Shown one piece after another: positions 16,537-63,863 of a stretch of DNA of 64,000 bases. Position 1 is the first letter of the stretch; each line of letters begins with the position of its first letter. Position numbers and translations under genes: made by a program. Origin of the DNA: Eledone cirrhosa (Eukaryota); assembly GCA_964016885.1 (NCBI GenBank), contig CAXHJY010001363.1, forward strand, positions 66,289-130,288. The letters are read 5' to 3'. A model generated the notes under the pieces. It had not been told where the DNA came from, did no database searches, and was given only the letters and a program-made list of their open reading frames with translations.

Positions 16537-16674
16537 AATATGGTTTTATAAATATAGTTTCCATTTATTTAATATCGTATATATATATATAGGTATGTTA
16601 TTCCGGGTTGAATCGGAGGTAACCACAGTAAGTAAGGTACTCAATACATTGCAGAGTATAAAAGTTTTAATATA

Positions 16675-16733
16675 GATGAGATTCTACAGGACTAGAACTG
16701 TTTCATTCTTTAGAAATCATCAGGAATCTCATC
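16675..16733 (-). ncRNA. Type I hammerhead ribozyme in element 16590-16740
   Basis: GAUGAGAUUC-CUGAUGA-UUUCUAAAGAAU-GAA-ACAG-uucuaguc-CUGU-A-GAAUCUCAUC; perfect 10-bp stem I, GUA triplet. Confidence 0.85.
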
Positions 16734-16857
16734 AGTCTTCAAATTTATTATTATTTTGCCTTTCATCCTTACGGGGTCGATAAAATAAAGTACCAGTAAT
16801 GCACTAGGTAATTGCTGGCCTTGTGCCAAAAGTAGAAACAATTATTATTATTATTAT

Positions 16858-40904: not shown

Positions 40905-40945
40905 CGTTGCTGACGATAGCTAATAAGCTTGAAACTAGTACAGCG
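40905..40945 (+). ncRNA. Minimal type I hammerhead in element 40817-41212
   Basis: CGUUG-CUGACGA-UAGCU-AAUA-AGCUU-GAAA-CUA-GUA-CAGCG; palindromic ACUAGU stem III. Confidence 0.8.
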
Positions 40946-44132: not shown

Positions 44133-47100
44133 GGATCTTGTCATTCAAACTCTCTGCTGTATTTCATATGTAAGAGAATGAGGTTTGGGACTTTGTCGTT
44201 CAGACTCTCTGCTGTATTTCATATGTAAGAGAATGAGGTTTGGGACTTTGTCGTTCAGACTATCTACTGTATTTCATATGTAAGAGAATGGGGTTTGGGA
44301 CTTTGTCGTTCAGACTCTCTGCTGTATTTCATATGTAAGAGAATGGGGTTTGGGACTTTGTCGTTCAGACCCTCTGCTGTATTTCATATGTAAGAGAATG
44401 AGGTTTGGGACTTTGTCGTTCAAACTCTCTGCTGTATTTCATATGTAAGAGAATGAGGTTTGGGACTTTGTCGTTCAGACTCTCTGCTGTATTTCATATG
44501 TAAGAGAATGAGGTTTGGGACTTTGTCGTTCAGACTCTCTGCTGTATTTCATATGTAAGAGAATGAGGTTTGGGACTTTGTCGTTCAGACTCTCTGCTGT
44601 ATTTCATATGTAAGAGAATGAGGTTTGGGACTTTGTCGTTCAGACTCTCTGCTGTATTTCATATGTAAGAGAATGAGGTTTGGGACTTTGTCGTTCAGAG
44701 CCTCTGCTGTATTTCATATGTAAGAGAATGAGGTTTGGGACTTTGTCGTTCAGACTCTCTGCTGTATTTCATATGTAAGAGAATGAGGTTTGGGACTTTG
44801 TCGTTCAGACCCTCTGCTGTATTTCATATGTAAGAGAATGAGGTTTGGGACTTTGTCGTTCAGACTCTCTGCTGTATTTCATATGTAAGAGAATGAGGTT
44901 TGGGACTTTGTCGTTCAGACTCTCTGCTGTATTTCATATGTAAGAGAATGAGGTTTGGGACTTTGTCGTTCAGACTCTCTGCTGTATTTCATATGTAAGA
45001 GAATGAGGTTTGGGACTTTGTCGTTCAGACTCTCTGCTGTATTTCATATGTAAGAGAATGAGGTTTGGGACTTTGTCGTTCAGACTCTCTGCTGTATTTC
45101 ATATGTAAGAGAATGAGGTTTGGGACTTTGTCGTTCAGACTCTCTGCTGTATTTCATATGTAAGAGAATGAGGTTTGGGACTTTGTCGTTCAAACTCTCT
45201 GCTGTATTTCATATATAAGAGAATGGGGTTTGGGACTTTGTCGTTCAAACTCTCTGCTGTATTTCATATGTAAGAGAATGGGGTTTGGGACTTTGTCGTT
45301 CAGACTCTCTGCTGTATTTCATATGTAAGAGAATGGGGTTTGGGACTTTGTCGTTCAGACTCTCTGCTGTATTTCATATGTAAGAGAATGAGGTTTGGGA
45401 CTTTGTCGTTCAGACTCTCTGCTGTATTTCATATGTAAGAGAATGGGGTTTGGGACTTTGTCGTTCAGACTCTCTGCTGTATTTCATATGTAAGAGAATG
45501 AGGTTTGGGACTTTGTCGTTCAGACTCTCTGCTGTATTTCATATGTAAGAGAATGGGGTTTGGGACTTTGTCGTTCAGACTCTCTGCTGTATTTCATATA
45601 TAAGAGAATGGGGTTTGGGACTTTGTCGTTCAGACTCTCTGCTGTATTTCATATGTAAGAGAATGGGGTTTGGGACTTTGTCGTTCAGACTCTCTGCTGT
45701 ATTTCATATGTAAGAGAATGGGGTTTGGGACTTTGTCGTTCAGACTCTCTGCTGTATTTCATATGTAAGAGAATGGGGTTTGGGACTTTGTCGTTCAGAC
45801 TCTCTGCTGTCTTTCATATGTAAGAGAATGGAGTTTGGGACTTTGTCGTTCAGACTCTCTGCTGTATTTCATATGTAAGAGAATGGGGTTTGGGACTTTG
45901 TCGTTCAGACTCTCTGCTGTATTTCATATGTAAGAGAATGGGGTTTGGGACTTTGTCGTTCAAACTCTCTGCTGTATTTCATATGTAAGAGAATGGGGTT
46001 TGGGACTTTGTCGTTCAGACTCTCTGCTGTATTTCATATGTAAGAGAATGAGGTTTGGGACTTTGTCGTTCAGACTCTCTGCTGTATTTCATATATAAGA
46101 GAATGGGGTTTGGGACTTTGTCGTTCAGACTATCTACTGTATTTCATATGTAAGAGAATGGGGTTTGGGACTTTGTCGTTCAGACTCTCTGCTGTATTTC
46201 ATATGTAAGAGAATGAGGTTTGGGACTTTGTCGTTCAGACTCTCTGCTGTATTTCATATATAAGAGAATGGGGTTTGGGACTTTGTCGTTCAGACTCTCT
46301 GCTGTATTTCATATATAAGAGAATGGGGTTTGGGACTTTGTCGTTCAGACTCTCTGCTGTATTTCATATGTAAGAGAATGAGGTTTGGGACTTTGTCGTT
46401 CAGACCCTCTGCTGTATTTCATATGTAAGAGAATGAGGTTTGGGACTTTGTCGTTCAGACTCTCTGCTGTATTTCATATGTAAGAGAATGAGGTTTGGGA
46501 CTTTGTCGTTCAGACCCTCTGCTGTATTTCATATGTAAGAGAATGGGGTTTGGGACTTTGTCGTTCAGACTCTCTGCTGTATTTCATATATAAGAGAATG
46601 GGGTTTGGGACTTTGTCGTTCAGACTCTCTGCTGTATTTCATATATAAGAGAATGGGGTTTGGGACTTTGTCGTTCAGACCCTCTGCTGTATTTCATATG
46701 TAAGAGAATGGGGTTTGGGACTTTGTCGTTCAGACTCTCTGCTGTATTTCATATGTAAGAGAATGGGGTTTGGGACTTTGTCGTTCAGACTCTCTGCTGT
46801 ATTTCATATATAAGAGAATGGGGTTTGGGACTTTGTCGTTCAGACTCTCTGCTGTATTTCATATGTAAGAGAATCGGGTTTGGGACTTTGTCGTTCAGAC
46901 TCTCTGCTGTATTTCATATGTAAGAGAATCGGGTTTGGGACTTTGTCGTTCAAACTCTCTGCTGTATTTCATATGTAAGAGAATGGGGTTTGGGACTTTG
47001 TCGTTCAGACTCTCTGCTGTATTTCATATGTAAGAGAATGGGGTTTGGGACTTTGTCGTTCAGACTCTCTGCTGTATTTCATATGTAAGAGAATGGGGTT

Positions 47101-47692
47101 TGGGACTTTGTCGTTCAGACTCTCTGCTGTATTTCATATGTAAGAGAATCGGGTTTGGGACTTTGTCGTTCAGACTCTCTGCTGTATTTCATATGTAAGA
47201 GAATGAGGTTTGGGACTTTGTCGTTCAGACCCTCTGCTGTATTTCATATGTAAGCGAATGAAGTTTGGGACTTTGTCGTTCAGACCCTCTGCTGTATTTC
47301 ATATGTAAGAGAATGGGGTTTGGGACTTTGTCGTTCAGACTCTCTGCTGTATTTCATATGTAAGAGAATGAGGTTTGGAACTTTGTCGTTCAGACTCTCT
47401 GCTGTATTTCATATGTAAGAGAATGGGGTTTGGGACTTTGTCGTTCAGACTCTCTGCTGTATTTCATATGTAAGAGAATGAGGTTTGGAACTTTGTCGTT
47501 CAGACTCTCTGCTGTATTTCATATGTAAGTGAATGATGTTTGAGATTTTGTCGTTCAAACTCTCTGCTATATCACATATGTAAGTGAATAAGCTCTTGGA
47601 CTTTGTCGATCAAACTATCTGCTATATTACACATGTACGTGAACGAGGTCTTGGACTTTGTCGTTCAAACTATCTGCTATATTACGTATGTA
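44133..47692. repeat. 55-bp satellite, about 64 units
   Basis: ctctctgctgtatttcatatgtaagagaatg(a/g)ggtttgggactttgtcgttcaga; homogeneous centre, diverged last units. Confidence 0.97.
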
Positions 47693-48434
47693 AAAATATT
47701 TCAATGTTATTTACTCAACACTACGTATTTCACAATATAAGTTAGTATTTACATTTTTAATGTAACCGGTATGAAAACGTCAATTGGAAATAATTATATG
47801 TTGAGGAAATTATGTTAACTTAAAGAGTAATAATATTTATATGATTTTAGCAAATACGGGAGACAACTGTGGAGATATTTTACTTTCCTCTTCAGAAAAA
47901 CATAAACTTCACAATACTTTTCAGTGTAGTAATGAAAGAATCTTCGTTATGTAAATGTATACGAGTAGGCGGTAAAATTAACATATCATATAAGATTGGG
48001 GTTAATTATAAATGAAACACCAACCGCATCAATATTTTTTTCATTGAGTAATTATGTTTAATTGGATGTTTGATGCTCACTGCATTGAATACATTAATAC
48101 TATTTCTTATTACGAGTGAATTCTTATTTTCCTCACTGCTTATTTAAATTGCTATAAAACAAAATAAGTTCTTGCGTCATCCATTTTGTGAATTCGTAAA
48201 ATTGTAAACATTAATTAAAACCATAGATCTATGAGCAATCCGCCATCTTGCTAAACTTTACATTCATTGACCTAACAAAGGAGTCTTATACCTGGTCGTT
48301 TGACTTGCTAGAAATATCAAACAATTCTCCCTCAAATAACATATTACTGTCTTTAAATAAAAGATAAATAAATGGTGGAGCACGTTTGATAATCTAAGGG
48401 TAGATACGAGTATGTGTGTATTTGTATGTACCTA

Positions 48435-54867: not shown

Positions 54868-54905
54868 TCTCTGAAGAGTCCATGTGGGTGAAACATTATG
54901 TAAGA
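54868..54905 (+). ncRNA. Minimal hammerhead-like motif
   Basis: UCU-CUGAAGA-GUCC-AUGU-GGGU-GAAA-CAUUAU-GUA-AGA; short stems. Confidence 0.5.
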
Positions 54906-60960: not shown

Positions 60961-61005
60961 TATTATATATATATATACACATATATATATATATATATAT
61001 ATATA

Positions 61006-61447
61006 AGAATTAAAATACTAGAGTGTGTTGGAGTTAAGCACCCTCTTCATATTATAGAAATGACAGTAAAGATATAGCTCAATGTAATTAAACAGAGCCG
61101 AAGAATTATGAAAATAAACAAAGAAGCCTTCAATACATCAAAAAGTCCTTTATTAGCCAACAATGTTTCGTCCTATTAAGGACTCATCAGGGCAAGTAAA
61201 GCTATAAGAAGCACTATCGCCAATACAAGCCAAAAACTCAGAAGAATATGGAGTATACATACATTAAAGGCATAGGAAAATTATCAAGTAAAAATTGCTA
61301 AGAAGTGAATAACATTTTGAACCCATATTACAAATATAGTACAATGCAAAATTACAGTACGATATATAATATAAATATAATATAATATAATTGATAATGA
61401 TAATAATAATAATATTAAAGGCCCAATATACATATATATATATATAC

Positions 61448-61485
<38 letters not shown>

Positions 61486-61720
61486 ATACACATATCCATC
61501 AATACAAACACAAACTAACACTTATTAAGAGTTTAAATATAAATATAATACATATATTATTTACAGTATAAAATATACTCCATATTCTTCTGAGTCTTTG
61601 GCTTGTATTGGCCGATAGTGCTTCTTATAGCTTTACTTGCCCTGATGAGTCCTTAATAGGATGAAACATTGTTGGCTAATAAAGACTTTTGATGTATTGA
61701 AGGCTTCTTGGTTTATTTTC

Positions 61721-61725
<5 letters not shown>
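61006..61725. mobile_element. Fold-back Penelope-like fragment with a hammerhead in each arm
   Basis: Arms 61105-61257 / 61574-61725; GCC-CUGAUGA-GUCCU-UAAU-AGGA(C/U)-GAAA-CAUU-GUU-GGC at 61156-61193 (-) and 61639-61676 (+). Confidence 0.8.
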
Positions 61726-61818
<93 letters not shown>

Positions 61819-61854
61819 CATATATATATACATATATATATATTACACATATAC

Positions 61855-61886
<32 letters not shown>

Positions 61887-61914
61887 ATACATATACGTAT
61901 ATATATATATATAC

Positions 61915-61961
<47 letters not shown>

Positions 61962-61975
61962 ATATATACATATAC

Positions 61976-62026
<51 letters not shown>

Positions 62027-62030
62027 CATA

Positions 62031-63608
62031 AGAAATTGGAATAAATGCTCTGAAATAGCGATATATATGTGAATATAGACATAGAATATTCGAAATATTC
62101 TGTATGTTTATAATAAACATTTTGAAGACCTAATCGCTATAGAATAGAATACGTCACGTATTACAATTAGATTCTCGATAAAGCAAGGGAAGTAATCTAC
62201 GCGTTTCATTCTTGTTAGAAATCATCAGGACTACATATCCAGTGCTTTTATCGAGAATGACACAGCTAGAGACTTATAGAATACTTAGCTGTGTACAGGA
62301 ACTGGTTTGAAAGAGCGGTTGCCGGTCCGGCAGAAATTAGAAATTGGAATAAATGCTCTGAAATAGCGATATATATGTGAATATAGACATAGAATATTCG
62401 AAAATATTCTGTATGTTTATAATAAACATTTTGAAGACCTAATCGCTATAGAATAGAATACGTCACGTATTACAATTAGATTCTCGATAAAAGCAAGGGA
62501 AGTAATCTACGCGTTTCATTCTTGTTAGAAATCATCAGGACTACATATCCAGTGCTTTTATCGAGAATGACACAGCTAGAGACTTATAGAATACTTAGCT
62601 GTGTACAGGAACTGGTTTGAAAGAGCGGTTGCCGGTCCGGCAGAAATTAGAAATTGGAATAAATGCTCTGAAATAGCGATATATATGTGAATATAGACAT
62701 AGAATATTCGAAAATATTCTGTATGTTTATAATAAACTTTTGAAGACCTAATCGCTATAGAATAGAATACGTCACGTATTACAATTAGATTCTCGATAAA
62801 AGCAAGGGAAGTAATCTACGCGTTTCATTCTTGTTAGAAATCATCATGGGACTACATATCCAGTGCTTTTATCGAGAATGACACAGCTAGAGACTTATAG
62901 AATACTTAGCTGTGTACAGGAACTGGTTTGAAAGAGCGGTTGCCGGTCAGCAGAAAATTAGAAATTGGAATAAATGCTCTGAAATAGCGATATATATGTG
63001 AATATAGACATAGAATATTCGAAAATATTCTGTATGTTTATAATAAAACATTTTGAAGACCTAATCGCTATAGAATAGAATACGTCACGTATTACAATTA
63101 GATTCTCGATAAAAGCAAGGGAAGTAATCTACGCGTTTCATTCTTGTTAGAAATCATCAGGACTACATATCCAGTGCTTTTATCGAGAATGACACAGCTA
63201 GAGGACTTATAGAATACTTAGCTGTGTACAGGAACTGGTTTGAAAGAAAACATACAGAATATTTTCGAATATTCTATGTCTATATTCACATATATATCGC
63301 TATTTCAGAGCATTTATTCCAATTTCTAATTTCTGCCGGACCGGCAACCGCTCTTTCAAACCAGTTCCTGTACACAGCTAAGTATTCTATAAGTCTCTAG
63401 CTGTGTCATTCTCGATAAAAGCACTGTGGATATGTAGTCCTGATGATTTCTAACAAGAATGAAACCGCGTAGATTACTTCCCTTGCTTTTATCGAGAATC
63501 TAATTGTAATACGTGACGTATTCTATTCTATAGCGATTAGGTCTTCAAAATGTTTATTATAAACAAACAGAATATTTTCGAATATTCTATGTCTATATTC
63601 ACATATAT
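62031..63608 (-). mobile_element. Retrozyme-like ~310-bp tandem array: four units plus an inverted ~1.2 unit, one hammerhead per unit
   Basis: Units start at 62031, 62339, 62649 and 62960; inversion from ~63248; hammerheads at 62192-62234, 62502-62544, 62811-62855 (core altered), 63124-63166 on - and 63434-63477 on +. Confidence 0.88.
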
Positions 63609-63818
63609 ACATATATATAATATACATATATATATATCTAAATATATATATATATATTGTTATACTTTGGGAGGGTCATGTTGCCAATAAGAAACACACG
63701 CACCAGTTGTTTCACTTCAATTTATTATATATTTTATATATTTATAATTTACAAATCTACAAATCTATAAATTATCTGGTTGGTGGTTGGTTCCACAACC
63801 AGATAGTTGTTTATATAT

Positions 63819-63863
63819 AGTCATAGTCCTTTCGTCACACACTCTGTGACCTCTTCAGTGACT
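63819..63863 (-). ncRNA. Minimal type I hammerhead motif
   Basis: AGUCA-CUGAAGA-G-GUCACA-GAGUG-UGUGAC-GAAA-GGA-CUA-UGACU. Confidence 0.7.

Follow-up and report, generated by a model that had tools for sequence, protein, structure and literature searches.

A non-coding 310-nt hammerhead repeat of Eledone cirrhosa, probably inserted by a borrowed Penelope-like reverse transcriptase

Background

How does a 310-nt repeat that encodes nothing come to stand in tandem at a place in the genome, and which molecule was copied to put it there? The question is raised by an array in the window, by which we mean the whole stretch of 64,000 nucleotides of Eledone cirrhosa DNA analysed here. How animal retrozymes move is itself stated to be an open question, for which a circular template and a Penelope helper are hypotheses (PMC7229834; bioRxiv 2026.07.22.740005), and the origin of the tandem and inverted insertions of Penelope-like elements (PLEs) is likewise described as unresolved (PMC8557442, PMC11167929). 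In our opinion the locus is probably one insertion of a non-coding 310-nt hammerhead retrozyme, made by a borrowed Penelope-like reverse transcriptase (RT) that copied a predicted RNA circle.

The locus and its parts

The initial annotation took the whole of 62031..63608 for one head-to-tail array. Tandem units of about 310 nt are indeed there, in 3.9 copies with 98% matches, but they stop at 63247, and 63248-63609 is an inverted arm with a fifth hammerhead (Table 1). The hammerhead motif is present on the minus strand as it had been described, with a 6-bp stem I and ACGCGU as stem III, and reads GUAGUC-CUGAUGA-UUUCU-AACA-AGAAU-GAAAC-GC-GUA/GAUUAC. The cuts had been placed after A17 at 62198, 62508, 62817 and 63130, with spacings of 310, 309 and 313. 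These positions and spacings stand; at 62817, however, the core carries an insertion, so that no cut is predicted there and just one clean 310-nt monomer is flanked by intact cores. The small indels between the units of the window may be assembly errors on the 130-kb contig.

The claim that the repeat has no ORF holds as well: ATG frames wholly within it reach 34 aa at most, and an RT plus GIY-YIG frame is absent from the retrozyme, which is not an autonomous PLE. The unit has a G+C content of 106/310 (34%). The array lies between (TA)n tracts, as had been noted, and because both flanks are (TA)n, a target-site duplication cannot be delimited. Elsewhere in the window, at 44138-47693, stands a 55-bp minisatellite of 64.7 copies with 96% matches.

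Table 1. Features of the insertion and of its surroundings (positions of the window)
Feature	Position	Strand	Remark
Long arm	62031..63247	-	3.9 head-to-tail 310-nt units, 98% matches
Long arm, outer (3') end	62031..63247	-	unit position 169, the 'tail' end
Long arm, 5' end	62031..63247	-	truncated, unit position 194
Inverted short arm	63248..63609	+	1.2 units, unit position 90 to 138 (UA-rich short end)
Hammerhead copy 1, type I	62192..62234	-	core intact; predicted cut after A17 at 62198
Hammerhead copy 2, type I	62502..62544	-	core intact; predicted cut after 62508
Hammerhead copy 3	62811..62855	-	2-nt insertion in CUGAUGA core; predicted inactive, or assembly error
Hammerhead copy 4, type I	63124..63166	-	core intact; predicted cut after 63130
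Hammerhead copy 5, inverted arm	63434..63477	+	one extra C, breaking the stem III palindrome
Single clean 310-nt monomer between two intact cores	62198..62507	-	predicted circle
Extended helix I around copy 2	62481..62571	-	covaries in sister families
Distal 15-bp helix closing the ribozyme domain of copy 2	62557-62571 paired with 62481-62495	-	
'Tail' of about 30 nt between both putative RT starts	62031..62060	-	unit positions 140-169; this outer end only
UA-rich putative priming site	63600..63609	+	unit positions 129-138; runs into (TA)n target
Left (TA)n target tract	61724..62030		
Right (TA)n target tract	63610..63657		
Further hammerhead-like sites	63824-63858 (-), 40910-40940 (+), 54871-54897 (+), 2705, 3161, 12322 (+)		

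The ribozyme

The core consists of CUGAUGA, GAAA and the cleavage triplet GUA, its positions being matched, in standard numbering, to what we take to be the hammerhead consensus. The hammerhead had been called minimal, which is correct for stem III only, as this is nothing but the palindrome ACGCGU (1-2 bp within one copy); stem I, on the contrary, continues after its 6 bp through an internal loop into a 3-bp helix and a 15-bp helix. Stem II is closed by U.U in most units, and with the short stem III this makes the core doubly weak. Between two copies the palindrome could form 6 bp. A match to Rfam Hammerhead_1, proposed earlier as a check, failed to appear when the window array was scanned; HH9 alone matched, weakly (E 0.45-0.74, below the gathering score), and the miRNA matches that Rfam also returned were discarded as artefacts of the TA repeats.

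Compared with 60 shuffles, the 310-nt monomer has the more stable fold (z = -4.2), and its two ends pair in the predicted fold. When 16 ribozyme domains of the retrozyme and its sister families (see below) are aligned, 91% of the cells pair and 13 of the 26 pairs have changed on both sides. The covariation score is matched by 0/500 shuffles and slid controls pair at 36-53%, controls that overstate the significance because the structure was named from the same, related sequences. The extended helix I with its internal loop is conserved across the sister families.

Variation points the same way: among eight variants found in at least five loci, seven lie within the 43-nt ribozyme, at positions where the fold is kept. 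They affect N7, loop II and position 10.1 (U.U to A-U), turn an A-U pair into G.U, or add a C to stem I. None of 38 locus-fixed changes falls on the 11 invariant core positions, where about 1.3 would be expected, so this count alone is not significant. A decayed antisense hammerhead suspected at unit positions 226-270 was rejected, as that stretch aligns with the sister families.

A dispersed family and its relatives

Family sizes were taken from pattern searches of the genome, and individual loci were examined on contigs C1-C3. The exact 43-nt motif has 4,177 matches in the genome, the reversed control none; a degenerate form has 15,937, which correspond to units and amount to about 4.9 Mb of the 3.0-Gb genome. 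With some 16,000 dispersed units this is not a single-locus satellite, and the dispersal is one of the observations in favour of the retrozyme identity that had been proposed, together with the Penelope-type ends and the clonal arrays described below. There are 1,255 short ends in the genome and 733 long ends on the forward strand (the strand used, as the reverse-strand count of long ends is inflated by overlapping gap lengths), and from these end counts the loci number roughly 1,300-1,500. The copies are more than 99% identical; the family is young, among the recently active elements of the genome. None of the mapped loci has an LTR-like layout.

Might the unit belong to a coding Penelope element as its pseudo-LTR, or else be a plain satellite with a chance motif? 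A coding PLE of this genome does share almost the entire core and stem II of the hammerhead. The likeness, however, is limited to the ribozyme core, and in all 20 loci scanned for ORFs the arrays have no PLE-like frame next to them. A chance motif, for its part, is ruled out by the covariation of the helices. We can hardly give this explanation any credence.

The sister families have units of 314-321 nt that are 60-66% identical to the retrozyme, and one sister pattern alone has 2,466 matches. They are older (L234-L260, L129, L177 and L178) and have the RT-start region and the end positions in common with the retrozyme; several carry a U3/A8 core variant and fuller stems III. Among those listed of 30 sister-family loci, none has an upstream PLE ORF belonging to the element. 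An array is also formed by a 163-nt tandem derivative of a sister family (L261-L263), although its hammerhead domain has been lost entirely.

Hammerheads are not confined to this family. A different hammerhead family occupies 61005-61720 of the window, again flanked by (TA)n, as two inverted copies that match HH9 at E 0.011 and 0.015; the outer end of one arm extends about 105 nt further, which makes this one more footprint of the Penelope type. The same 64 kb hold at least four further hammerhead-like families, and the repeat of the 40910 type recurs as a tandem of about 490 nt in locus L224.

Four sequencing runs whose kind is unrecorded were also searched. The 967 matching contig pieces from X1, with inversion joints and TA ends among them, suggest that this run is genomic DNA. 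From X5 came a single exact contig of 340 nt (310 + 30), which is not used as evidence, since a trace-level tandem array gives the same as a circle. X3 and X6 gave no matches, possibly falsely.

Two-armed insertions

If unit position 1 is the first base after the cut, the arms end outwards either at about 139 (short end) or at 165-172 (long end). Among 12 insertions chosen solely by their ribozyme, 10 consist of a pair of diverging arms, one with the short and one with the long end; of the other two, one is single-armed and one runs into a gap. A second set of 120 loci was chosen on the short end alone, 60 of them lying almost one after another on C1 and the other 60, with long TA tails, on C1-C3. 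The layout recurs there: in 92 of them a diverging opposite arm ends at 163-174, about 24-35 nt further on, most tails being 26-33 nt. Elsewhere in this set the opposite arm ends at 159-161 (three loci) or at 139 (one), runs off the stretch (four), or ends at position 26 (one, its stretch containing an assembly gap); 19 loci were scored as single-armed, some of these still having a short piece of the long end. Twenty loci picked as pairs are kept outside this tally. The initial annotation had named a Penelope-like RT as helper, and these ends support it genome-wide.

The long end is also recognisable where it deviates: of 111 non-standard continuations past its motif, 88 reach (TA)4 within 20 nt, and the remainder include internal variants. 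The arms have median lengths of 3.4 and 4.0 units, and some exceed 20 units. At the inner joint the arms of the 120-locus set meet directly or across at most 42 nt. Among 79 junctions scored, 32 have extra or unassignable letters; 27 of the 47 clean ones share at least two letters, against 18.5% at random.

PLE insertions are known to contain inverted, 5'-truncated copies with a tail of 30-40 bp at one end (PMC8557442). In vitro, the tail of an anole PLE spans the distance from one internal RT start site to the other, and both target strands are cut and extended (PMC11167929). Judged by its ends, the two-arm layout is this Penelope signature of a tail at one end, and the retrozyme appears to insert as a PLE does. 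At the short ends the unit's C131 reads T in 50 of 82 cases, as if a (TA)n primer had paired over the AU-rich stretch of the RNA and overwritten it.

Probably one monomer per insertion

For the haplotypes, 149 stretches were reduced to 115 loci with at least three full units (1,110 units in all), leaving out three double-insertion stretches, units with more than 12 differences, and the window. The 115 loci show 41 locus-wide haplotypes. Of 83 two-armed loci, 82 have a single haplotype common to the two arms, and in the remaining one, L143, the haplotype switches; the rolling reverse transcription that had been suggested for the array gains its support from this clonality. In ten of the first 70 loci, changes found at that locus only are present in every full unit of both arms. 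A further 104 changes are confined to single units and remain unspread. They lean to T>C and G>A in the RNA sense (40 vs 20, p = 0.014), with the T>C bias present on both chromosome strands, and such a G.T-wobble bias is consistent with RT errors made unit by unit.

The 5' ends of the arms take no notice of the ribozyme: 3 of 198 fall within 3 nt of the cut, where 3.8 are expected. Clonal arms and cut-blind 5' ends together point to rolling reverse transcription of one monomer, whose simplest reading would be a circle with a sealed junction, as predicted.

It could be argued that short insertions were expanded and homogenised later as DNA, by unequal crossing-over and gene conversion, as ordinary satellites are. 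The runs of minor variants shared within the long arrays L124, L181 and L282 would agree with this, and local amplification is the view favoured in the accessible part of bioRxiv 2026.07.22.740005. Nevertheless, such a process does not readily account for inverted arms that share their haplotype in all but one of the two-armed loci, nor for single-unit changes that stay unspread and are biased relative to the RNA rather than the chromosome, nor for arm lengths that are non-integral and uncorrelated (rho 0.11). We give it a slight chance as the general explanation. A few long arrays (L124, L143 and L181) are mosaic, which means that there is also some template switching or subsequent local expansion. 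In L143 and L181 the haplotype switches within one insertion, suggesting that the RT at times changes its template molecule.

The rolling of one monomer does not by itself require ligation. The RT may instead have jumped from the 5' end to the 3' end of the same ribozyme-cut linear monomer, unligated and held together by helix I; the predicted fold does pair both monomer ends, and clonality would be explained as well as by a circle. In that case, however, indels or stops would be expected at the cut, whereas the cut junction in 1,167 units shows two lineage-fixed insertions and one substitution, without scattered indels, and the 5' ends are not enriched there. In our judgement this route is very unlikely.

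Presentation of the hypothesis

Taken step by step, our preferred reading, in which a Penelope-like RT copied a predicted circle, would run as follows. The arrays would be transcribed. Tandem hammerheads are predicted to cut after GUA, best as a pair joined through the ACGCGU palindrome, and to release a 310-nt monomer for closure by a host ligase. A Penelope-like protein, as the ends suggest, would nick both (TA)n strands and prime at two internal sites separated by about 26-31 nt, with one primer presumably pairing with the (AU)4 stretch of the RNA. Both primers, going by the clonality, would roll round the same monomer for about four turns in the median. Finally the two cDNA ends would be joined, often at microhomologies of 1-8 nt, leaving the arms back to back. 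Points that tell against this reading are the doubly weak core, the single-armed and the mosaic loci, the anole PLE whose RT start has no homology to the target, and the failure to find a coding element with the same RT-start region among 54 PLE-bearing stretches.

Is the ribozyme needed for this at all? The template may have been a long uncut transcript of a uniform array, a linear multimer mobilised in the Penelope manner with the ribozyme largely idle. The hammerhead is weak, and for the anole PLE its cleavage is dispensable in vitro (PMC11167929); when frog retrozyme dimers were assayed in vitro, 8 of 9 failed to cleave (bioRxiv 2026.07.22.740005). Cut-blind 5' ends fit an uncut template too, and uniform parents would yield uniform daughters. 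Yet a linear multimer cannot alone fix a new change in all units, and 41 uniform haplotypes exist among the 115 loci; nor could daughters ever be longer than their parents, and the common variants keep or improve the ribozyme. We consider this template unlikely as the general case, although any single insertion may have been copied from a uniform linear multimer, and we retain the predicted circle copied by a borrowed RT.

Coding Penelope-like elements and the putative helper

Which element might lend the RT? One PLE-type family, with 7,151 motif matches, bears a hammerhead that is almost the same as the retrozyme's in its core and stem II, and a 3' fragment of the family lies in the window at 16590-16735 (-), or 16696-16735 when delimited more narrowly. 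All four stretches fetched for it (L324-L327) have one long and one short end, as the retrozyme insertions do, which serves as an internal control, and two of them, L325 and L326, have RT and GIY-YIG-like frames, for which Pfam support is weak and the RT motif was read by eye. These two possibly belong to the Hydra clade, going by a motif that we assume to be characteristic of it. The hammerhead core that this family shares with the retrozyme may reflect common ancestry, capture of the ribozyme or convergence.

Other PLEs of the genome, 98% identical between copies, have long RT plus GIY-YIG frames and end in (TA)n. The named relatives that a protein search gave for one PLE ORF are at about 50% identity only, in bivalves and in bacterial records. 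Among these coding elements is a young family (L214, L215 and L223) with a long RT plus GIY-YIG frame, a Zn-finger-like linker and a (TA)n target; its 3' end, CTAAT running into TA, resembles the long end of the retrozyme, and it is a candidate helper. A pattern search found no hammerhead in this family. A coding element with the RT-start region of the retrozyme was absent from 54 PLE-bearing stretches (50 picked by GIY-YIG and the four hammerhead-sharing ones, a small sample of more than 10,000 GIY-YIG candidates), which were searched with a profile of the unit and its sisters.

A possible trace of RNA editing

If every unit of an array is copied from one RNA molecule, a change made in that molecule would be written into the whole array. 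Counted by haplotype background, locus-wide A>G events exceed T>C events by 18 to 7 (p = 0.008); counted by distinct sites the excess is just 11 vs 7 (p = 0.24). The ratio of A>G to C>T is 18:4 among locus-wide events and 7:13 among changes of single units (p = 0.004, or 10:4 and p = 0.08 when sites are counted). Recurrent A>G changes stand at unit positions 20, 276, 259 and 88, all with a 5' U and three of them in fully paired helices, a 5' context that we weighed against the neighbour preference we assume for ADAR. One locus has three A>G changes within 11 nt.

We can imagine that each insertion preserves one circular RNA, read by a pair of Penelope-like RTs from either side of a DNA break, and that A-to-I edits made on this circle by the host's ADAR are written into every unit of an array and become heritable DNA changes that drive the evolution of the element, an idea that we regard as tentative and, on balance, doubtful. 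Template switching or recombination that mimics recurrence, polymerase errors, and tolerance of or selection for G.U pairs are live alternatives. Should the excess be due to editing, it would be a route from RNA editing to heritable DNA.

Implications of the hypothesis

More than 1,000 near-identical insertions make the ends, junctions and variants of this family readable like an experiment, and provide unusually direct genomic evidence on how animal non-LTR retrozymes move. In addition, a 310-nt RNA with two mapped putative start sites is directly usable in a PLE priming assay.

Comparison with known systems

The initial annotation knew of no description of this family. No account of it, or of two-armed retrozyme insertions, was found in the literature covered, supplements, Repbase/Dfam and most subscription journals being outside its scope. 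Two diverging arms with fixed ends go unmentioned in the accessible text of PMC7229834 and bioRxiv 2026.07.22.740005, and in that of PMC7229834 the words inverted, tail, TPRT, microsatellite, octopus and cephalopod have 0 matches.

The nearest systems on the coding side are the EN+ PLEs, which are alike in the inverted 5'-truncated arm, the tail at one end, the two internal RT starts, the (TA)n targets and the hammerhead upstream of 3' ends (PMC8557442, PMC11167929). The element described here differs from them in that it has no ORF and that what is repeated is a 310-nt monomer rolled many times. In the anole PLE, RT starts in vitro at a site without homology to the target (PMC11167929), whereas one putative start site here matches it. 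Derivatives of PLEs in Chlamys such as MRC1 are also non-autonomous passengers with multicopy head-to-tail insertions, but their 3' ends are like that of the autonomous partner, and the clade to which they belong lacks canonical hammerheads (PMC8557442), while no partner with a shared end was found here in the 54 PLE-bearing stretches.

Among retrozymes, those of the axolotl offer parallels to the weak core. The palindromic stem III tetraloop of HHR_Amex1 resembles the stem III described here, and HHR_Amex2 likewise has a U.U where stem II begins; in the axolotl the two weak features occur separately, and cleavage is much better in dimers (PMC7229834), whereas our element combines both. In sequence it is unrelated to published retrozymes as far as tested, published units not having been aligned directly, and it differs from them in that it is known from genomic DNA alone, while circles have been demonstrated there. 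With animal non-LTR retrozymes in general it shares the non-coding tandem units of 150-450 bp with a G+C content below 50%, a type I hammerhead per unit, thousands of dispersed copies and coexisting PLEs (PMC7229834; bioRxiv 10.64898/2026.07.22.740005). In all features that can be tested at the level of sequence it agrees with them, and by these features it is a new family among the known animal non-LTR retrozymes.
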